This document shows positions 15,494 through 52,134 of a stretch of DNA of 64,000 bases, in pieces. The DNA is from Candidatus Poribacteria bacterium (lineage in GTDB: Bacteria > Poribacteria > WGA-4E > WGA-3G), in assembly GCA_965198235.1 (NCBI GenBank), contig OZ240248.1:4352001-4416000 (forward strand), in the 5' to 3' direction. Within the stretch, counting starts at the first letter, position 1. Each line of letters begins with the position of its first letter. A model generated the notes under the pieces. It was not told the origin of the DNA. It made no database searches and saw only the letters and a program-made list of their open reading frames with translations. The translations under genes and the position numbers were made by a program.

Positions 15494-15964
15494 TTAACGT
15501 TTCGTTGACTTTGCCAAAGCCTGTGCTAAGTTTCCTTGGTGACCGCATCGCGCAGTATTAATCGGAAATTCTGCACCTCGGAATCTGATTCTGGCAGTTC
15601 TAAGTCGGTTTCTCTGACTTCTGTGTATGCTACCTCCATGGACCAGGACAAGAACAAGGTTCATCTCAACGTCATTTGGAGTGCACCTGTCAACAATACG
15701 CGCTCCGTCTTGCAACTGTGCAACCGCTTCTGATGCATCAACATCGCCTCGCTTAAGTTCCATTGGAACTGCGACGAGACCGTTCTGGACATCGTCAATG
15801 TGGAAAAGGATCAGGTCACATTGATTTGTATCCGCTTGGTCTGTTGGAAATGCAAGATCTACATCCAATACAACGCGATTTGCTGGTTTAGATTGTAGAT
15901 TAGCCATAGAGACGCGACACCCTTCTTTGGTATAGGGGATGTCGCCTTTCTGTTTCCTACCCAC
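15494..15964 (-). CDS. Hypothetical protein, putative PD-(D/E)xK-like nuclease
   Basis: CDLILF...VPMELK...AVAQL pattern; directly downstream of the ATPase. Confidence 0.55.
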   Translation of the reverse strand: MGRKQKGDIPYTKEGCRVSMANLQSKPANRVVLDVDLAFPTDQADTNQCDLILFHIDDVQNGLVAVPMELKRGDVDASEAVAQLQDGARIVDRCTPNDVEMNLVLVLVHGGSIHRSQRNRLRTARIRFRGAEFPINTARCGHQGNLAQALAKSTKR

Positions 15965-15985
15965 TGGCGAATCTCCTTAAGAGCT

Positions 15986-17440
15986 TCATGCAGATTCACG
16001 TCCGCTGTTACCTTCCTGTTTCTCTAATTTCTGTTGGAGATTCACCGATCGATTGTAAAGCCCTTCCGCAACCTCCTCATAATCTTCTGGAGAGATGCCT
16101 TCTCCGGGTTTAAAAGGCATTTCCTTCACAGGTTTGTCCTTTTGGAAATGCCAAACACCAACTTCTTCTGGCAGCAGCCAACTCACAGGTTCATTAGTTT
16201 CTTTAGCCAGCAGTCCCTCAAGCGTTAGGTTGCTTATTTCCTGAAGCAGCCAATCACTATGCGTTGTTATAATTACTCTTACCCCTGCCCGAACCAAACG
16301 AGCGAGGATAACTGCCATGTCCGCCTGCGCTCCAGGATGCAGGTGCGCTTCCGGTTCCTCAATGATGAGCGTATCACCGGGCTTAAGGTCACTACGAAGA
16401 AACAACACCAACGGAGCGAGTTCCGATACCATTGAAGAGGCTTGACTCACAAGAATATCTTCCTCCATTCCCTGTGGACGGTAGAGAAACTCTGAGTGCC
16501 CACTTGGAGAAGATTTTGCGATTATGTCACCGGCGAGTACATCAGTCTCTAATGATTTGGCAATTGCAAACAATTTATCATTAGGTGTATCAGGTTCTTC
16601 GTAGAGTATCAGCAGCCGTAGGAAGTCTGCAAGCCCTCCTGATAACGTCGCAATATCTGAGGAATCTTCCATGAATGGGTAACTAATATGTGCTACAGAT
16701 GAACTCGCGATTATTTTGTGATTTTGCATTATGCCGCTTCGAGAAGATGGCAGATAATACCTTCGCAAATGCCTGATAGAGGGACGCGAACCTTCCAAAA
16801 TAGATACGGCATAAGAAACATGTGGTCTGATTAATTCAACGGGATTAACCACCATGTTCTCGTTAACTCGATCATTTATTACGATGCTATCACCAGAACC
16901 TTTCATCTCAACTGCCCAGAGCTCTTGACTTGCTTCACTAACCGATAAAGAAACATCCATTCTATGGTGCCGTCCATTGTCCAACCGAGGTAATTTGGAA
17001 ATCGAATTAAGATTAAAACAGCGTTTAAGTTCTTCCTCAAAAACCTTTAGATTCTTGAGCCCAGATTTTATTTCCTCACGGATGTCCTGAGGAAGTTCTG
17101 ACAACTTGACCTGCTTGTCAATTATTTTTATTTTTTCAACCAATTGATAAAATTTATTTATTTCATCTATTACCTCAATTACATCATCGAAAGAGTCTGA
17201 CTCAAATGTGGCTTTCGGTAAGGATAATATAGCGTGGTTCAACAAAGGATATCGCGGGAACCCCTCAAGGATACCATGCAGCGCATACACCAGCGTGGCA
17301 AAATAGGTTTTTCCCGTGTTGCTCGGACCAACAAATACCGTCAGCGGACGCAAATCAATGTTCGCCTCCGCAATGGGACCGAAATTTTTAACAACAATTT
17401 CGACGTTCGGATGCTGATGCGTTTCTTTGGCTTCGTTCAT
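15986..17440 (-). CDS. ABC-type/AAA ATPase (AAA_15/AAA_21, AbiEii/OLD-like)
   Basis: KNFGPI, Walker A GPSNTGKT, signature ASS, Walker B IIEEPEAHLHP, TTHSD. Confidence 0.88.
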   Translation of the reverse strand: MNEAKETHQHPNVEIVVKNFGPIAEANIDLRPLTVFVGPSNTGKTYFATLVYALHGILEGFPRYPLLNHAILSLPKATFESDSFDDVIEVIDEINKFYQLVEKIKIIDKQVKLSELPQDIREEIKSGLKNLKVFEEELKRCFNLNSISKLPRLDNGRHHRMDVSLSVSEASQELWAVEMKGSGDSIVINDRVNENMVVNPVELIRPHVSYAVSILEGSRPSIRHLRRYYLPSSRSGIMQNHKIIASSSVAHISYPFMEDSSDIATLSGGLADFLRLLILYEEPDTPNDKLFAIAKSLETDVLAGDIIAKSSPSGHSEFLYRPQGMEEDILVSQASSMVSELAPLVLFLRSDLKPGDTLIIEEPEAHLHPGAQADMAVILARLVRAGVRVIITTHSDWLLQEISNLTLEGLLAKETNEPVSWLLPEEVGVWHFQKDKPVKEMPFKPGEGISPEDYEEVAEGLYNRSVNLQQKLEKQEGNSGRESA

Positions 17441-17671: not shown

Positions 17672-19045
17672 TTAAAAAAACGTCAGATACAGTTTTCCAA
17701 CAATCTCCCGCCATAACAGGACTGCGAGTTCGCGGGCGTGATAATCGCCCCACATCGAAGCCTCTCCACACGGAATCTTCCTGCCTTCCGGCACATAATC
17801 CCACCCATTCGGACGGTGATATATCGAATGCAACAGCAGCCCTTGATGCGTATCGGATTCAGAGAGATAGGGTTCAGCGAAGAGCGTCTTCGCGACTGTT
17901 AAGCCCGCTTGGTAATAGGAATCTCCTGCATCTGGTTCACCGTGTTTTCTGAGATAGTTGCCCAGCCGAATCAATCCTTGCGCCGCAATCGCGGCGGCGG
18001 AACTATCTACCGGTTCAAGATCGTTGAACGGATCCGCGGGGACTGCCAAATAATCGTTGATATATTCGGCTAAACCGGGCGCGCCTGTATCCCAATATGG
18101 GATTCCGTCCTGTGCCGTGTTTTCAATATAGAAATCAGCGGTGGCTTCTGCCGCTTTGCGCATGTGTGCCGTTGCCAGTTCATATCCACCGTAAGGTTCA
18201 AGCATATCTGCTGGTAGCGTGTCAAAAAATTCAAGTTGCTCGGCGTAACCCGTAATAATCCATGCGAGTCCGCGCGTCCACGTCGTAAACGGTGAATACC
18301 CCTGCTGCGTACTCGGACAGCGGTAGTTCCCATCGTTCGTATTGAAGATAGATTCATGTACCACCCGTCCACGCAGGTCGAATGCATCACGACCTTCGCC
18401 ATAGTAGACGTTATAGGTTGCCGTCGTCTGCGAATGCTGGAGCAAGCGTTCCAGTAGACTAACAGCGACATCGCCCTCATCCATAAGCACTGCGCCAAGG
18501 GTATGTCCAAGTCCCAAAACCCGTAGAGAACGAATAGTGTCTGAGAAAAGCGAATGCGGTCCATTGAAAGAGGCGATATATCCCGTGCCATCTTTAATAC
18601 GGGTCCAGCGACTCGCTTGCACGGCAGCGGAGGCTTTCAGTGCGAGTTCATAGAAATCCATCTCGCCATCGTTCAAGGGAATCACACCCTCCCGCATCAA
18701 ACGTCGGAGGTTGCCGTAAGTAGAGACATTATTGAAACCGTGATCATGGACACCAATGTGGGTCACATGGGGTGCCATCTTTTCAATCGTATTCCGTCTA
18801 CCGATCTCAAGGAACTGCTCATCGCCAGTGGCATCAAATTGGAGAATAGCGGAGCCGAATTGGAACCCTTGCGTCCACTCAGTCCAGCCGCGTGTCGTGT
18901 AGGTGCCAGCGACCGTAAAAACAGGTGTCCCTTTTTCGGGGGGCCATGTGTCTTCTATTGCTAAAATTTTTTGACCTGAACATTCAAAAAGCCTCTGAAT
19001 CTGAGGCTTCAGATCGGCGGGATGCAATGAATCGTTTATCTGCAT
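17672..19045 (-). CDS. Glycoside hydrolase family 88-like (unsaturated glucuronyl hydrolase-like)
   Basis: WTEWTQGF, HDHGF, TWTRGLAW, DSSAAAIAA, WGDY. Confidence 0.8.
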   Translation of the reverse strand: MQINDSLHPADLKPQIQRLFECSGQKILAIEDTWPPEKGTPVFTVAGTYTTRGWTEWTQGFQFGSAILQFDATGDEQFLEIGRRNTIEKMAPHVTHIGVHDHGFNNVSTYGNLRRLMREGVIPLNDGEMDFYELALKASAAVQASRWTRIKDGTGYIASFNGPHSLFSDTIRSLRVLGLGHTLGAVLMDEGDVAVSLLERLLQHSQTTATYNVYYGEGRDAFDLRGRVVHESIFNTNDGNYRCPSTQQGYSPFTTWTRGLAWIITGYAEQLEFFDTLPADMLEPYGGYELATAHMRKAAEATADFYIENTAQDGIPYWDTGAPGLAEYINDYLAVPADPFNDLEPVDSSAAAIAAQGLIRLGNYLRKHGEPDAGDSYYQAGLTVAKTLFAEPYLSESDTHQGLLLHSIYHRPNGWDYVPEGRKIPCGEASMWGDYHARELAVLLWREIVGKLYLTFF

Positions 19046-19226
19046 TTTTTAAATTTTCCTTGCGGTTCGGTGAGGTGCATTGGATGAACAACGATCCCCT
19101 CCGTAGATCCGCCTGCGCCGTTGTTGCAGGCTACAGTTTTGGTTTAACATTCCATTCTTAACCAGAAACCCGCATTCTCACTGCGAAGCAAATGGACACA
19201 GCGGGCCAGAAGCAATAAGTTAAAAA
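19046..19226 (+). repeat. PE copy 3 (full length), abutting the GH88 start codon
   Basis: TTTTTAAATTTTCCTTGCGGTTCGGTGAGGTG...GCTACAGTTTTGGTTTAACATT...ACCAGAAACCC...AGTTAAAAA. Confidence 0.85.
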
Positions 19227-19238
19227 TCTAAAACTGCC

Positions 19239-19745
19239 TTACGGTGTGTCTGCGGCATCAGCATCTTTATACCGTTCACATATCACTTGGATGAGATTGG
19301 TTGTGGACTTACCCGGGACGTTCAAACCGACGATAACCTCACCACCGTTTGCCTCAACGATATCCCTTTCAATGAGTTGTTCCAGTTGATAGTCGCCACC
19401 TTTAACGTGGATATTCGGTTTGAGATCGGCAAGCAAAGAAATTGGCGTTAGTTCTGGAAAGATAACGACGTAATCGACGCATTCCAACCCAGCGAGCATC
19501 TCTGCGCGCTCATCTTCAGGAACGAGTGGACGATTTTCACCCTTGAGTTCCCGGACTGAACCATCACTGTTAACCGCCACCACGAGCAGATCCCCAAGCT
19601 GACGCGCCGCCTGAAGATAACGGAGATGGCCCAAGTGTAGTACATCAAAACAACCGTTGGTGGTGACAACAACGTCTCCGCCTGCTCTCGCTTGCTGAAG
19701 AAGGGATGCAAGTTCGTTGCGATGATAGATTTTTTGGCTTGACAT
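19239..19745 (-). CDS. rfaE2: D-glycero-beta-D-manno-heptose 1-phosphate adenylyltransferase (RfaE domain II)
   Basis: TNGCFDVLHLGH, NSDGSVRELKG..RP, KGGDY, STT. Confidence 0.9.
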   Translation of the reverse strand: MSSQKIYHRNELASLLQQARAGGDVVVTTNGCFDVLHLGHLRYLQAARQLGDLLVVAVNSDGSVRELKGENRPLVPEDERAEMLAGLECVDYVVIFPELTPISLLADLKPNIHVKGGDYQLEQLIERDIVEANGGEVIVGLNVPGKSTTNLIQVICERYKDADAADTP

Positions 19746-19890
19746 TTTTCTATTTCTAAACTTTAGTTTAGTATAGTTTAGCACGCATTAGACCGTTTGG
19801 CAAGTTTTTCCTTTATTGCCCAATTCATGATTCTGTGCTACAATGAAGTGGAAATTGTAGTAAAAAATTATGCCGATCAGGAGAAAAGAG

Positions 19891-21057
19891 ATGACACAGC
19901 AAAAAGAACACACGCATCGCAGGTTACCTATTTGCACGCTCGGCGCACCCGGACACGGCAAAACAACATTGACGGCGGCGATAGCAAAGGTCGTCGCGAG
20001 AATCGGTGCGATCCACACGAACGGAGATAGCGACTTTGAAATCCAAACCCCAATCAGCCACCCAATCCGAGAAGGGGTCGGCATCACCTACCGTGCAATA
20101 GCGTATGAAACCAGCGGTAAACTTTACAGACAAATCGATTGCGAGACACACATCGATGCTGTCAAAATGCTCGTCAGTGGGTCTCCAGCAATCCAAGGGG
20201 CAATTTGGATAGTAAATGCAGTCGAAGGGATAACACCCGACTCCGAGGCACATCTCCGCCTTGCCAGCCAGATGCAATTCCCGACAGTGTTATCCTTTCT
20301 TAACACAGGTGGTACTCCAAAGGACGATGAACTCATAGACATTTGCCAACAGGAAATGGAAGAACTGCTGAACGAGTGTGGATGGGATGAAGAAACCGCT
20401 CCAATAATCGTTGGCGACGTGCGCAAGGCATTAGACTACAGGGGAGACAGTATCACCTCCACACAGTGGCAACCGATCGTTGACCTTATCTTCGCAATGA
20501 ATCGGGCAATGCCTGCCCCCGTGGACACGGCACGCTTACCGCTTATTATGCCTATTCATGAAATCACTGAGGAAACGAAGGAGAGTGTATCCGTCCGCGG
20601 CGATATTGTGCAGGGACAACTCGCTGTCGGACAAGCCGTAGATATCGTGGGCAAAGGGGACAGAATTAAGACGCGGGTTCTCAGTATAAAGGAGGATGAA
20701 GTGTGCGTCGAATCTGAACCCGACTGGTTGTCTCTTGGACAGGTACTTTGTACACCGAAGACAGTCAAATCACATTCCGAATTTACGGCACTCATCTATC
20801 TGCTGACACACGAAGAGAGCGGCACACATATCCCCCTGATCGAAAACGACAGACCTGACATCTATCTATGGGGGACTGACATACCAGCGCATCTAAAACT
20901 CCCGCCAAGTCTCTCCCTTATTACACCGGGGGCTTATGCCCACGTCTCCGTTACACTCGACTTACCGCTGGTGATGGAGATCGGCACCCGATTTGAAGTA
21001 AAAAAGATGGATGTGCGAATCGGGTTCGGTGTTGTGACTGGCGTAGGTGATCTCTGA
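19891..21057 (+). CDS. Highly divergent EF-Tu paralogue with degenerate G motifs
   Basis: Colinear with EF-Tu over all three domains: GHGKTTLTAAI, GIT, YET...IDC..H, LPLIMPI, GQVLCTP, F.A.IY.L..EE.G.H.P, RIGFGVV. Confidence 0.85.
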   Translation: MTQQKEHTHRRLPICTLGAPGHGKTTLTAAIAKVVARIGAIHTNGDSDFEIQTPISHPIREGVGITYRAIAYETSGKLYRQIDCETHIDAVKMLVSGSPAIQGAIWIVNAVEGITPDSEAHLRLASQMQFPTVLSFLNTGGTPKDDELIDICQQEMEELLNECGWDEETAPIIVGDVRKALDYRGDSITSTQWQPIVDLIFAMNRAMPAPVDTARLPLIMPIHEITEETKESVSVRGDIVQGQLAVGQAVDIVGKGDRIKTRVLSIKEDEVCVESEPDWLSLGQVLCTPKTVKSHSEFTALIYLLTHEESGTHIPLIENDRPDIYLWGTDIPAHLKLPPSLSLITPGAYAHVSVTLDLPLVMEIGTRFEVKKMDVRIGFGVVTGVGDL

Positions 21058-21189
21058 TCCAAAACCTGAGCCCGTAAGCGTAGCGGAGGGGTGTTTTTGC
21101 TTGGGTATTTCTTCGGATTTCTTCAGATATACGTCAAAGAACGTTATTCACCCGTTGACTTCACCGAACCGCAAGGTATAATTAAAAAA
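21058..21189 (-). repeat. PE copy 4 (left and central modules); its TTAA supplies the hisA stop codon
   Basis: CTTCACCGAACCGCAAGGTATAATTAAAAA and GAGCCCGTAAGCGTAGCGGAGG (reverse complement of the PE core). Confidence 0.8.
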
Positions 21190-21895
21190 TATGTGCGGTA
21201 GCAATTGCGTCACGCAGCGCGAGGTCACCGGTATACAAAGCACGCCCTATTATCGCGCCGCTGGCACCGATCTGCTTCAAAGCGGCTACGTCAGCAAGCG
21301 ACGTGACCCCACCCGAAGCAATCACATCCGCAGATACGGCATCAACAACATCGGCAGTTGCGTCAACATTGGGACCCTTGAGCATGCCATCGCTTTTGAT
21401 GTCAGTGTAGATAAGCGTTTGGACCTCCGATATCTCCACGGCAAATTCGACAGCAGATTTTTGAGAGACCTCTAACCATCCGTCCGTGGCGACCCTTCCA
21501 TCTTTCGCGTCGATGCCGACAGCGACGCGCACACCGTGTTCGGCACACGCCTGCTTCACCAAACTCGGTTGTTTGAGCGCAACCGTGCCTAAAATGGCGC
21601 GATCCACACCTAACGCCAAAACCGCTTCTAATTGCTCCATGCTGCGGATGCCACCGCCAAGCTGGACAGGAATATCAAGCTCACATACGATTTCGCTAAC
21701 GATATGGAGGTTCGCCGATTCACCCTGAAACGCGCCGTCCAGATCCACGAGGTGCAAGTATTCTGCTCCCTCGGCTTGCCACCGCAATGCCATTTCCACA
21801 GGCGCGTCCGAGAAAATTGTCTCCTGCGACGCGATACCCTGCACTAAATTTACACACTTTCCACCGCGAAGATCAATTGCGGGTAGTATTTGCAT
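21182..21895 (-). CDS. hisA: ProFAR isomerase HisA
   Basis: ILPAIDLRGGKCV, HLVDLDGA, QLGGGIRS, TDIKSDGMLKGPN, ASGGV, IIGRALY. Confidence 0.95.
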   Translation of the reverse strand: MQILPAIDLRGGKCVNLVQGIASQETIFSDAPVEMALRWQAEGAEYLHLVDLDGAFQGESANLHIVSEIVCELDIPVQLGGGIRSMEQLEAVLALGVDRAILGTVALKQPSLVKQACAEHGVRVAVGIDAKDGRVATDGWLEVSQKSAVEFAVEISEVQTLIYTDIKSDGMLKGPNVDATADVVDAVSADVIASGGVTSLADVAALKQIGASGAIIGRALYTGDLALRDAIATAHIF

Positions 21896-22267
21896 TTTTA
21901 ATTTTCCTTGCGGTATTTTAATTTTACCTTGCGGTTCGGTGAGGTGGGTTGGGGTACTGAAAGTTCCTCTCCGTATACCCGCTCTCCATTACATTACGAG
22001 CTACGTGCCTTGTTTATTGTTTTCACTAAAACCCTCAAACTCAGTTGCACATTTAATTTTCCTTGCGGTATTTTAATTTTACCTTGCGGTTCGGTGAGGT
22101 GGGTTGGAGTACTGAAAGTTCCTCTCTGTATACCCGATCTCCATTACATTACGAGCTACGCGCCTTAGTTTATTTCTTCCACCAAAACCCTCAAACATAG
22201 TTGAGACTTAATCAGAAACCTGCGCGTAATGGAATGGAGCGCAGCCAAGGCGTACATAGTTAAAAAA
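21896..22267 (+). repeat. PE copy 5: tandem duplication of a ~155-bp left/central module plus one right module
   Basis: 21896-22050 and 22051-22205 are near-identical; ends ...CGTAATGGAATGGAGCG...CATAGTTAAAAA. Confidence 0.9.
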
Positions 22268-22275
22268 CCTTTCCG

Positions 22276-23199
22276 CTATTCATCTCGGAAAATACCGAGC
22301 AACTTCAATTGGACGATTGAGATAACCGCAATAATGAAAAATAGCACCCAGCCGATTGTCGCCGCATAGCCGAGCCGCATGAATTGAAATCCGTTTTTGT
22401 AGAGATACATGACGATAGTCGACCCCGCATCCGCAGGTTCACCGCCGTTTGTTAAAATGAATGGAAGGTCAAAGAGTTGGAGCGAGCCTATCATCGAGAC
22501 AACGAAAACGAAGGCTATCACGGGGCGCAAGGAAGGGAGCGTGACATGGATGAACGCCTGCCACCAGTTCGCGCCATCGACCGCTGCCGCTTCATACAAC
22601 TCCTGCCGAATCCCTTGCAACCCAGCCAAAAAATAGATCATATTGAACCCTGCCCACTGCCAAACCCCTGTTAGGATGACCGCTGGCATCACATATTTCT
22701 CCTCGTTTAACCAACCGATCTCTTTGCCAAAAAGAACAAATTCCTGATTTATCAAGCCTGCCCGCTGGTCGTAGACGAGGTTAAAGATAATCGCGACGAA
22801 GACACCGGCGACGAGGACTGGTGCGAAAAAGGCGAGACGCAGGAAATTCTTCCCTTTGACGAATTTGGAATTGAGGAGAATCGCCAATAGCAAGGCAATC
22901 GGCAATTGGAGGGTGAGGGTGCCCGCGGCGAAATAGGCAGTGTTCCGTAGCGATTTCCAAAAAATTGGGTCACGAAACAGATCCGTGAAGTTACCGATGC
23001 CAACAAATATTCGGCTCTGGAACCCACGCATTTCATACAAACTCATAACGAGCGACGAAATGAGCGGATACCCCATAAAAATGACGAACAGCAGATAAAA
23101 CGGAGCGATAAAAAGATAGGGAGCGATTTTCTGTTGTTGATTCCAAAACCGGTTTTTAATTATTCCTTGCGGTTCGGTGAGGTTGGTTGGGGTTTTCAC
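22276..23199 (-). CDS. Carbohydrate ABC transporter permease with a repeat-derived N-terminus
   Basis: EAA motif ELYEAAAVDGA and GYAATIG; GGAGG + GTG start (23199) lies inside PE copy 6. Confidence 0.9.
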   Translation of the reverse strand: MKTPTNLTEPQGIIKNRFWNQQQKIAPYLFIAPFYLLFVIFMGYPLISSLVMSLYEMRGFQSRIFVGIGNFTDLFRDPIFWKSLRNTAYFAAGTLTLQLPIALLLAILLNSKFVKGKNFLRLAFFAPVLVAGVFVAIIFNLVYDQRAGLINQEFVLFGKEIGWLNEEKYVMPAVILTGVWQWAGFNMIYFLAGLQGIRQELYEAAAVDGANWWQAFIHVTLPSLRPVIAFVFVVSMIGSLQLFDLPFILTNGGEPADAGSTIVMYLYKNGFQFMRLGYAATIGWVLFFIIAVISIVQLKLLGIFRDE

Positions 23200-50481: not shown

Positions 50482-52134
50482 TTACTTCTCCAAAACGATC
50501 CGAATCTCCGAGTCTATACCGTGTCCACCAAAACCCACTTTAGCAGAAATCGGACCGAGAGACTCCAGTGGAAAGAGATTTTCTGTGATACGTTGTGTCA
50601 CTGCTGCATCCAATTTCTGTCCTGAAAGAGAACCAAGCACCGTTATGATCGGAAGGAAACGCTTCAATTCCGGCACAAACAACTCCGGTTGAATAAACGC
50701 CTGAACACCATCTGCACCTGCGGAGAACGCTATATCCTCCAAAACAGGAGCGTTACCTGTGGTCGTATCAATCACAGACTTCAAGCCCGCCAGTGTTGTA
50801 CCCAAAACGAAATAGTCGTTAATGATTGCATATCCGCCCGTAACCGCTAATAGAAAATTGAGACGGAGCTGCACGGGCTGCAGTGTGATACCTTTGTAAT
50901 CCTGCGGTTCAAGGAATTCGAGTGGTTTGCCGGCAATTAAGGGCTTTCCCTCCTTCACGATTCCCAAAACTGCGTTTAATACATCCGGAGCCTTCGCATG
51001 AGCCAGCAAAACCAATGAAGGCACGACCGATACTTCACCCGGATCGGGAGCAACTAATAAGACAGTTAAGTCCGAGCCCAAAACTTCGGAGAGATCTATA
51101 TTGCCGAAGAGTTCTCGCATCTGATTCGGAATGGTCAGTGAAGCAACAAAGGCAGTACGTTCGGGAAAAGCAAGGAACGGTTTCGAGTCATCCGCAGTTG
51201 GAAGATTAGAACGGCTGGTGTCAATACTGCTTCGGAACCGATGTCGTGACACAATCACGCCTTCTTCATATCGGTTGCTAAACGCCCACGATCCTGAATC
51301 CCCAAACAACCCCAAAATTTGTTTAGCAAGCACATCGGAACTCATAGTATCCAATAAAGGAGCAAATTGCTGCAAATCTACATACCCAATGCTTTTGTCC
51401 TGATGATAATCGTCCTGTATCTCCACCGCCATCGGATGCTCAGCGAGAAATCCTTGCTTTTTCGGGTCAGTTTTTGTGCCAGAAAGCCCCGTATAGAGGT
51501 CAAGCGTCTCAACTAATAACAACGGGTCGAGGCTTAAGATGCCTATTTTTCCGATGAAGGTATAACTAAAATTGCGTGGATACCCTATAATGGTATTAAT
51601 CGTGAACTCGCCGTAATCGGATTGGAGACGCTCGTATTTTGGGTTGATCGCATCCGTTGCTGTAATCGCTTCAATGCTCAGTTTCTCCTGCGCTCCCACC
51701 GCAGTGATGAGCAGAAACGAGAGTTCTCCTTCACGTCGATAAAGCGTAAGGATGGCTTCCTCCCCAAAATAGCCGGTGATCGTCTTCAGGTCAAGTTTCC
51801 CACCCATCTCGAATTCCCATAGCTGCTTCTGATAGACGAGTTGTTTCCACCATCGCTGCTTTCTAATCTCAGTGAGAAGCGGCATTTTAGCAGTCTGCTT
51901 TCCCAACTCACTACGATTGAAGGTTTCTACCAAGCCTTTCAACTCCTTGAGCGTCAAATAACAAATTGGAGATTTCGGGAGAAGCGTGATAAGATGCTGT
52001 TCCGGTTCCCACAACGCGGTCCGGTGATAGATAATGGATAGCAAAATGATAACCCCAATAAGAACGATTAGGCTGATGAAAATGATTCTTTTAATTATTC
52101 CTTGCGGTTCGGTCAGGTGGGTTAAAACATTCAC
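50482..52134 (-). CDS. Hypothetical membrane-anchored protein (DUF3352-like) with a repeat-derived N-terminus
   Basis: 550-aa ORF with an N-terminal TM helix; GGAGGAG + GTG start lies inside PE copy 7. Confidence 0.7.
   Translation of the reverse strand: MNVLTHLTEPQGIIKRIIFISLIVLIGVIILLSIIYHRTALWEPEQHLITLLPKSPICYLTLKELKGLVETFNRSELGKQTAKMPLLTEIRKQRWWKQLVYQKQLWEFEMGGKLDLKTITGYFGEEAILTLYRREGELSFLLITAVGAQEKLSIEAITATDAINPKYERLQSDYGEFTINTIIGYPRNFSYTFIGKIGILSLDPLLLVETLDLYTGLSGTKTDPKKQGFLAEHPMAVEIQDDYHQDKSIGYVDLQQFAPLLDTMSSDVLAKQILGLFGDSGSWAFSNRYEEGVIVSRHRFRSSIDTSRSNLPTADDSKPFLAFPERTAFVASLTIPNQMRELFGNIDLSEVLGSDLTVLLVAPDPGEVSVVPSLVLLAHAKAPDVLNAVLGIVKEGKPLIAGKPLEFLEPQDYKGITLQPVQLRLNFLLAVTGGYAIINDYFVLGTTLAGLKSVIDTTTGNAPVLEDIAFSAGADGVQAFIQPELFVPELKRFLPIITVLGSLSGQKLDAAVTQRITENLFPLESLGPISAKVGFGGHGIDSEIRIVLEK

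Follow-up and report, generated by a model that had tools for sequence, protein, structure and literature searches.

Elongation factor Tu (EF-Tu) is among the most conserved and most studied of proteins, and duplicates of its gene, tuf, normally remain near-identical through gene conversion. What, then, is the role of a full-length EF-Tu paralogue in which most motifs of the guanosine triphosphate (GTP) switch have been lost? This question is raised by a 388-amino-acid protein, here called EFTuL, that is encoded in a 64,000-nucleotide stretch of a Candidatus Poribacteria genome (GenBank assembly GCA_965198235.1, contig OZ240248.1, positions 4,352,001 to 4,416,000 of the forward strand; hereafter the window). 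A first-pass annotation, made from the sequence alone, had proposed a pseudo-GTPase or altered-nucleotide derivative of EF-Tu with a new role, and this proved to be the right frame, as EFTuL is conserved, is under selection and has lost the canonical switch motifs. We consider it probable that EFTuL is a neo-functionalised, EF-Tu-derived pseudo-GTPase that acts by binding.

The relationship to EF-Tu is clear. EF-Tu chains in the PDB matched EFTuL at E-values of 1e-46 to 1e-58 and about 30% identity, and the best phmmer E-value to solved EF-Tu structures (2.6e-58) places the likeness far beyond chance, which confirmed that the intact 388-residue open reading frame (ORF) encodes a full-length EF-Tu paralogue. 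Pfam analysis gave matches to GTP_EFTU (66 bits) and GTP_EFTU_D3 (50 bits), with no match to GTP_EFTU_D2. On the NCBIfam equivalog model for EF-Tu (TIGR00485), EFTuL scored 210.6 bits, under the curated cut-off of 522.4, while scores for SelB (TIGR00475, 32 bits, cut-off 242), EF-1alpha (27.5 bits), EF-G and other models were far below the EF-Tu score. The curated cut-off was reached for none of the NCBIfam translational-GTPase models, and EFTuL was not placed in a characterised translational-GTPase subfamily, a statement that for the 2015 census discussed below covers the accessible portion of that source. As annotated, the protein ends with domain 3 and has no SelB-type C-terminal extension. 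An ESM Atlas search with EFTuL returned generic EF-Tu clusters only, and near-identical public proteins from "Candidatus Poribacteria bacterium" are named "hypothetical protein", "GTP-binding protein" or "elongation factor Tu". The canonical gene that the first-pass annotation had suggested looking for elsewhere was found: the window's genome (5.17 Mb in 2 contigs, 96% complete) has a single detected tuf, which scores 724.3 bits, lies beside fusA about 212 kb upstream of EFTuL and encodes a protein 33% identical to it. The genome has one EF-Ts gene and one bL12 gene, and no second copy of either was found in it. Two further EF-Tu-family ORFs lie within 4 kb of each other on the same genome (C1:3674110-3675180 and C1:3677157-3677942; L003 and L004), with open frames of 671 and 606 amino acids that score 114 and 60 bits on the EF-Tu model; one is possibly SelB.

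The motif strings reported in the first-pass annotation were all exact, but the description of G1 as broken was wrong, since GAPGHGKT is changed yet still fits the Walker A consensus GxxxxGK[ST]. The G2 motif (RGITI to VGITY) is indeed degenerate under either alignment and varies across the EFTuL family, but in a gap-free alignment the tuf threonine falls opposite G64, not opposite the T of "GITY". Of the features that define EF-Tu proper, EFTuL has G1 and lacks the DxxG of G3, the NKxD of G4, the SAx of G5 and a complete domain 2 with its A76 pocket. Alignment to the genome's own tuf further showed that the pocket histidine, H68, is replaced by Ala, and that the E-D-x-F of the tuf sequence "PIEDIF" is replaced by H-E-I-T. 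The next wall of the aminoacyl pocket falls within a deleted hairpin of domain 2, where a 14-column gap between K267 and E268 corresponds to VEMFKKSLNEGQAGDNLG... in tuf; the roles of these residues are presumed from the EF-Tu ternary-complex literature. This gap, along with the missing GTP_EFTU_D2 match, bore out the reported loss of a domain 2 segment, and the GTP_EFTU_D3 match and the alignment to tuf did the same for the colinearity of domain 3. Retained in relation to tuf are the Walker A loop, the YET...Y strand, helix D and the core of domain 3. Pseudo-GTPases are characterised by a retained G-domain fold, by loss of one or more G motifs under purifying selection, and by a lack of GTP hydrolysis, nucleotide binding or both; EFTuL shows the first of these features in its predicted structure and the second in its sequence, where G3, G4 and G5 are lost.

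A search across the phylum, in a sample of 151 genomes (140 of the window's order and 11 of other orders or classes), detected EFTuL in 139 of the 140 genomes of the order, 138 of them with a match of at least 237 bits. Genome G033 encodes a more divergent copy (158 bits) that is nested inside the clade in trees, and the sole genome of the order without a copy, G003, is 86% complete. At the genus level, 23 of 24 other genomes encode EFTuL at 78-93% identity, with G003 again the exception. The 11 genomes of other orders or classes yielded nothing above a tuf-level match, and three of these had no match at E≤1e-30. All five fetched matches that had been flagged for a stop or a split proved to be intact ORFs, where the flags were explained by a stop just upstream of the start or by an insertion that split the alignment. 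Ratios of nonsynonymous to synonymous substitution rates (dN/dS) were estimated by the pairwise, approximate Nei-Gojobori method for 11 genomes, using pairs with dS<1. The median was 0.091 for EFTuL (range 0.081-0.116, 25 of 55 pairs) and 0.041 for tuf (range 0.020-0.055, 21 of 45 pairs from the same genomes without the window's own). Constraint extends over all three domains, with values of about 0.09 in each (0.08-0.12 for the G domain). EFTuL nevertheless evolves faster than its surroundings: in genome G046 it is 57% identical to the window protein, compared with 73-84% for the flanking genes and 86% for tuf. Metatranscriptome contigs from four sponge libraries of one study cover EFTuL, and one of these (X1 record 5) spans 19880-20583 with 0 differences. 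EFTuL is under purifying selection, and selection on all three domains together with order-wide retention indicates that it is functional. The neutral, unconserved decay that the first-pass annotation had raised as an alternative is not what was observed.

An alignment of 26 family members, which reach down to 32% identity with the window protein, contains 32 invariant columns and reveals how unevenly the motifs have fared. Walker A has survived in 23 of these sequences, while L023, L024 and L025 (genomes G036, G033 and G039) have GKT deleted and an insertion in switch II; L024 and L025 are 63-72% identical per domain. The DxxG glycine is gone in 25 of the aligned rows, the exception being L023 (DAHGY), and the G3 aspartate is nearly invariant. 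G4 reads NKAD in L020, NKxE in species family f3, NQxE in f2, NTxx in f1 and DQxx in the group without a P-loop, whereas G5 is GD or GN across the order-level family (GD in L020). Helix D, with the invariant residues D145, E147 and E155, is the stretch of the G domain that is closest to tuf. Exactly where f1 has the domain 2 deletion (equivalent to 20689-20694), the f3 members L019, L022, L031, L032 and L036 have variable, low-complexity inserts that are rich in Pro, Ser, Gly and Glu and reach about 50 residues in L036; judging by these sequences, the site behaves as a free loop.

In phylogenetic trees, the EFTuL family formed a clade of its own (Shimodaira-Hasegawa-like approximate likelihood ratio test, SH-aLRT, 99-100). 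Its inner branching matches the species families (f1, f2 with f3, and f4), which indicates vertical descent. A search of a library of 1.84 billion cluster representatives returned only two clusters above the general EF-Tu level, P0122 (431 bits) and P0123 (267 bits), with the next at 177 bits; in the tree, P0123 branches as sister to the order-level clade (SH-aLRT 100). The metagenome-assembled genome G157 encodes a copy 85% identical to P0123 (L087, 5001-6194) alongside a canonical tuf (714 bits), and G158 (L096) has one that is 58% identical. Against the tufs of the order, the G157 tuf reaches 71-77% identity; those tufs share 79-96% identity with the one in the window's genome. We regard G157 as a relative from outside the order because the relatives drawn for it include Poribacterial genomes. 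The G157 and G158 proteins are intermediates: the DxxG glycine has already gone (DCVNH/DCVDH), but G1, NKID, GSA and the pocket residues E-D-x-F are still present. They feature an acidic insert in domain 2 and share the family signatures YETSGK, WxPI, PKS, ND(R/K) and FW/LW with EFTuL. The EFTuL clade was found here only in Poribacterial genomes. A single tuf duplication followed by stepwise loss would be the simplest history for these sequences.

A separate observation concerns metagenome representatives (P0124-P0271). These include 64 near-full-length (370-440 amino acids) best matches, 49 of which are missing one or more of Walker A, DxxG, NKxD and SAx; by alignment, loss of the DxxG glycine alone is the commonest pattern (21 of the 49). 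This hints that disabled EF-Tu copies may be commoner than recorded.

Structure prediction, another of the checks first suggested, returned a confident three-domain EF-Tu fold in an open arrangement, like that of EF-Tu bound to guanosine diphosphate (GDP). The AlphaFold2 (AF2) model from the 26-row alignment had a predicted local distance difference test (pLDDT) score of 90.6 and a predicted template modelling score of 0.86. In this model, switch I forms a beta-hairpin (block pLDDT 74-93), switch II is ordered (blocks 74-95) and domain 2 has two beta strands fewer than the canonical control. VIA-align superposed the model on EF-Tu-GDP structures (1tui, 1efc, 6mij and 8rdw) with Z scores of about 43-46 and a root-mean-square deviation (rmsd) of ∼2.0 Å over ∼370 residues, including 1tui (Z 44.6, 2.0 Å, 374 residues), 1efc (Z 43.8) and the Balon-bound chain 8rdw_H (Z 43.2, 2.2 Å). 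Complexes of EF-Tu with EF-Ts gave Z scores of ∼35, and the first GTP-analogue form listed, 2c78, gave 29.6 with an rmsd of 8.3 Å; Foldseek was also run. As a control, the genome's own tuf was modelled by the same method at the same alignment depth (26 rows). This model was closed: template modelling scores were 0.90-0.92 to 1eft, 1exm and 1ttt but 0.55-0.58 to GDP forms. Switch I was helical in the control, at low confidence (block pLDDT 47-61). The predicted contrast between open and closed forms therefore stems from the sequences of the paralogue, not from the modelling method.

From these data, we propose that tuf was duplicated in an ancestor within Poribacteria and that the copy was inherited vertically. 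The DxxG glycine, which senses the gamma-phosphate, would have been lost first, followed by G5, then G4 and finally, in one subclade, the whole P-loop; the domain 2 hairpin and the pocket residues for the aminoacyl end of transfer RNA (tRNA) would also have gone. The three-domain scaffold would have been kept, most likely fixed in the open, GDP-like form, with an ordered beta-hairpin in place of the mobile switch I. We infer that such a protein no longer delivers aminoacyl-tRNA to the ribosome and that the preserved scaffold binds something. Carriage of aminoacyl-tRNA by EFTuL is most unlikely, as the gamma-phosphate glycine, guanine recognition, the second pocket wall and, in the model, the tRNA cleft are all missing. 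Retention of the Walker A loop and the G3 aspartate in most lineages suggests that a phosphate or nucleotide is held there as a structural ligand without base specificity, and the existence of the subclade without a P-loop would make this ligand dispensable for at least part of the function. A more specific proposal, to which we give an outside chance, is that EFTuL is a constitutive mimic of EF-Tu-GDP that, with no nucleotide cycle, attaches to the factor site of the ribosome, to the bL12 stalk or to EF-Ts, and that it may represent a wider, undescribed class of EF-Tu-derived pseudo-GTPases. If true, a disabled elongation factor would have become a dedicated translation regulator or hibernation-type factor.

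Some of the same evidence could be read differently. Degenerate catalytic motifs, a deletion in domain 2 and faster evolution than tuf would be seen in a decaying tuf duplicate, whether a young or an old pseudogene that is still open by chance. The likelihood of this is virtually nil, given the presence of EFTuL in all but one of the order's 140 sampled genomes, the five intact copies among five flagged ones that were fetched, a dN/dS of ∼0.09 in every domain, 32 invariant columns over 26 sequences that extend to 32% identity, a confidently predicted fold, and a Shine-Dalgarno sequence and promoter-like site of its own; gene conversion from tuf as a source of artefactual conservation is excluded by the 33% identity. 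The rapid divergence from the window protein in G046 (57%, against 86% for tuf and 73-84% for neighbours) would also suit a decoy or immunity protein that mimics EF-Tu-GDP and soaks up EF-Tu-targeting toxins, phage proteins or antibiotics, a role that the first-pass annotation suggested for toxins and antibiotics. Sponge microbiomes are dense and competitive, and the solved complexes of EF-Tu with the effectors Tse6 (4zv4) and CdiA (7vmc) show the same open shape as the EFTuL model. However, the dN/dS of 0.08-0.12 carries no sign of an arms race at pairwise resolution, inheritance is strictly vertical and order-wide among stable housekeeping neighbours, and an identity of only 33% to the host tuf would leave many surfaces unmimicked. 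EFTuL has no consistent linkage to genes for toxins, immunity, biosynthesis or defence, and PADLOC analysis of EFTuL and four neighbours found nothing. Neither the decoy role nor the chaperone and RNA-binding roles also named in the first-pass annotation gained support, and we regard the decoy as quite unlikely.

It is also conceivable that EFTuL is still a translation factor but with altered specificity, a nucleotide-dependent carrier that runs on ATP or any nucleoside triphosphate (NTP) and supplies the ribosome with a special tRNA or a ligand resembling tRNA. Walker A persists in 23 of 26 members and the G3 aspartate is nearly invariant, yet the DxxG glycine is lost in all but one member, and L023, L024 and L025 have no P-loop although they are conserved elsewhere in the protein (63-72% per domain between L024 and L025). 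The N-x-x-E found at G4 in some members resembles the ATP-specific G4 motif of YchF, although the free variation of G4 across the family argues against a conserved base pocket. The window protein retains the His at the catalytic position, and the most tuf-like part of its G domain, with D145, E147 and E155 invariant, is helix D, where bL12 and EF-Ts dock on EF-Tu. On the other hand, the aminoacyl pocket is dismantled and partly deleted, the open model cannot form the three-domain tRNA cleft, and neither a tRNA or synthetase gene nor an RNA motif is linked to EFTuL. The prospects of this explanation are slim.

Several points weigh against the pseudo-GTPase reading itself. Nucleotide binding and the absence of both GTPase activity and tRNA binding are all deduced from motifs, and the retained Walker A, G3 aspartate and often the catalytic-position His may signify an NTPase that uses another nucleotide, or a slow switch. 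The open conformation was predicted from 26 sequences and may reflect lost closed-state contacts rather than a fixed state. The trees are quick searches, and the placement of the tuf duplication inside Poribacteria is inferred from distribution rather than from the tree. The dN/dS values are pairwise and approximate, with tuf pairs that leave out the window's genome, while contigs from RNA libraries indicate presence rather than prove transcription, as DNA may occur in them, and carry no information on level, strand or ends. Finally, there is no flanking gene that all four families have in common, and a partner was not found by gene neighbourhood.

The EFTuL frame on the + strand runs from an ATG at either 19870 or 19891 to a TGA at 21055-21057. 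The second ATG, annotated as the start in the first pass, is very likely the true one, because a Met is conserved at this position (23 of 26 aligned paralogue rows, or 27 of 29 when canonical tuf rows are included) and AGGAG lies 7 nucleotides upstream; the ATG at 19870 shows no conservation in the aligned paralogues. The sigma-70-like promoter site and the terminator-like hairpin are pattern matches only, from a consensus scan. EFTuL is a stand-alone gene, which agrees with its reported position outside a str or tRNA-tuf operon: a divergent gene for an HldE domain II adenylyltransferase lies upstream, a convergent hisA lies downstream, and the only tRNA genes in the window are at 569-743, 19 kb away. 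An Rfam scan of 18500-22500 gave no match at E≤0.1. The effective number of codons is 59 for EFTuL and 55 for tuf, which indicates a genome with little codon bias. Across the groups, EFTuL is found beside HldE-II and hisA (f1), accA (f2), NamZ/DUF3500 (g4) or enolase-like and HAD genes (g7 and g8). A partner encoded in the neighbourhood is rejected, as synteny is found only within families. The positions of all features are given in Table 1.

Table 1. Features of EFTuL and of the repeats in the window, in window coordinates
Feature	Position	Strand	Basis
Promoter-like site: TTGCCC, 17-nt spacer, TACAAT, with TG before the second hexamer	19816..19844	+	consensus scan, 9/12 matches
Shine-Dalgarno AGGAG, 7 nt before ATG 19891	19879..19883	+	read from sequence
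EFTuL coding sequence, 388 aa plus TGA; probable EF-Tu-derived pseudo-GTPase paralogue	19891..21057	+	frame, profile matches, conserved Met, dN/dS
G-domain homologue, residues 1-208	19891..20514	+	Pfam GTP_EFTU, per-domain dN/dS (0.08-0.12), AF2 model
P-loop GAPGHGKT, Walker A consensus kept	19942..19965	+	sequence and family alignment
G3/switch II DCETH, DxxG glycine replaced	20137..20151	+	sequence and family alignment
G4 NTGG instead of NKxD; guanine-specificity Lys and Asp gone	20302..20313	+	sequence and family alignment
G5 GDVR instead of GSAL	20413..20424	+	sequence and family alignment
Reduced domain 2, residues 209-290	20515..20760	+	alignment, AF2 models, no GTP_EFTU_D2 match
14-residue deletion site K267/E268, relative to tuf VEMFKK...GDNLG	20689..20694	+	alignment to own tuf
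Domain 3, residues 291-388, colinear with EF-Tu domain 3	20761..21054	+	Pfam GTP_EFTU_D3, alignment, AF2 model
Terminator-like hairpin, 3' of the EFTuL stop codon	21084..21115	+	consensus scan
Repeat copy	19047-19084		
Repeat copy	21157-21190	-	
Tandem 135-nt repeat unit	21890-22024		
Repeat copy	21916-21953		
Tandem 135-nt repeat unit	22045-22179		
Repeat copy	22071-22108		
Repeat copy	23165-23184		
Repeat copy	52100-52119		

A dispersed intergenic repeat with the core CCTTGCGGTTCGGTGAGGTG has six copies in the window, where none would be expected, and flanks EFTuL, hisA and ABC-transporter genes. RNA-library contigs pile up on it to a summed depth of 400-900, compared with ∼10 on genes, and join different copies; it is therefore probably a genome-wide element, similar to repetitive extragenic palindromes or miniature inverted-repeat transposable elements, that is present in transcripts. 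Further upstream (15494-17440, - strand), the window encodes a 484-amino-acid AAA_15/AAA_21 ATPase whose best match is the defence protein PD-T4-4_A (E 1.8e-34), followed by a 156-amino-acid ORF that belongs to no family; their GC content is 0.44, compared with 0.51-0.54 for neighbours. The pair is missing from this place in the relatives L026, L030, L033 and L034 and is 41% identical in L035, and it is probably a variable, mobile defence cassette unrelated to EFTuL. Genes for a PhyH-type 2-oxoglutarate dioxygenase are located next to or near EFTuL in L017 (3926-4891, f2) and L031 (3096-3902, f3). Another prolyl hydroxylase is known to act on EF-Tu (PDB 4iw3), and the proximity in f2 and f3 may well be chance.

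An entire order of sponge-associated Poribacteria has retained EFTuL even as the GTP switch of the protein was dismantled stepwise, and the living series of a form lacking only DxxG (G157 and G158), an NKAD form (L020) and a form without a P-loop (G033, G036 and G039) makes it possible to ask which parts of a translational GTPase serve what. The protein points to a partner that recognises the open EF-Tu shape, and a ribosomal, EF-Ts or stalk partner would imply new translation regulation in an uncultured symbiont lineage; practical value will be modest until the partner is found. Our literature search found no description of a Poribacterial or other bacterial EF-Tu pseudo-GTPase, and the supplementary subfamily lists of the 2015 census might hold a related group. 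In comparison with canonical EF-Tu in the open GDP form (1tui and 1efc), EFTuL has the same three-domain order, ∼30-33% identity and a predicted structure with an rmsd of ∼2 Å over ∼370 residues, but it scores 210.6 bits against a cut-off of 522.4, has lost DxxG, NKxD and SAL along with the domain 2 hairpin, has a changed pocket, lies outside the str operon and is modelled open where its own genome's tuf is modelled closed.

In the accessible portion of the Atkinson 2015 census, actEF-Tu (EF-Tu3) of some Actinomycetales is the only distinct EF-Tu-like subfamily named, and its members are described as condition-specific, antibiotic-resistant translation factors (PMC4342817). Like EFTuL, actEF-Tu is a second, diverged EF-Tu, confined to one clade and no longer subject to gene conversion; on that account, actEF-Tu proteins are working GTPases whereas EFTuL has lost the switch motifs, a distinction drawn by description only. 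SelB and the archaeal SelB-like/EF-Tu-like protein MM1309 are likewise specialised paralogues of the EF-Tu/EF1A family and, according to the accessible part of their description, bind GTP and a specific aminoacyl-tRNA (PMC4329189). EFTuL differs from SelB in having no C-terminal extension, a score of 32 bits against a cut-off of 242 and no pocket. In another partly accessible source, open EF-Tu(GDP) binds hibernating ribosomes with Balon, bL12 and 16S helix h5 (PMC10901736). This is one known job of open EF-Tu, and the EFTuL model superposes on that chain (8rdw_H); however, the Balon system uses ordinary EF-Tu, and the likeness of EFTuL to it is one of predicted shape only. The window's genome (96% complete) has no match to Pfam Host_attach (PF10116), which we take to be the family covering Balon homologues such as Bacillus subtilis YocB; other Balon-like families were not searched. 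An analogy is offered by eukaryotic Ski7, a non-hydrolysing relative of Hbs1 and eRF3 that serves as an adaptor. As would be the case for EFTuL, a translational-GTPase scaffold has been reused for binding after loss of the switch, but Ski7 is an analogy only, as it belongs to a different branch of the family and a different domain of life and has a known set of partners.

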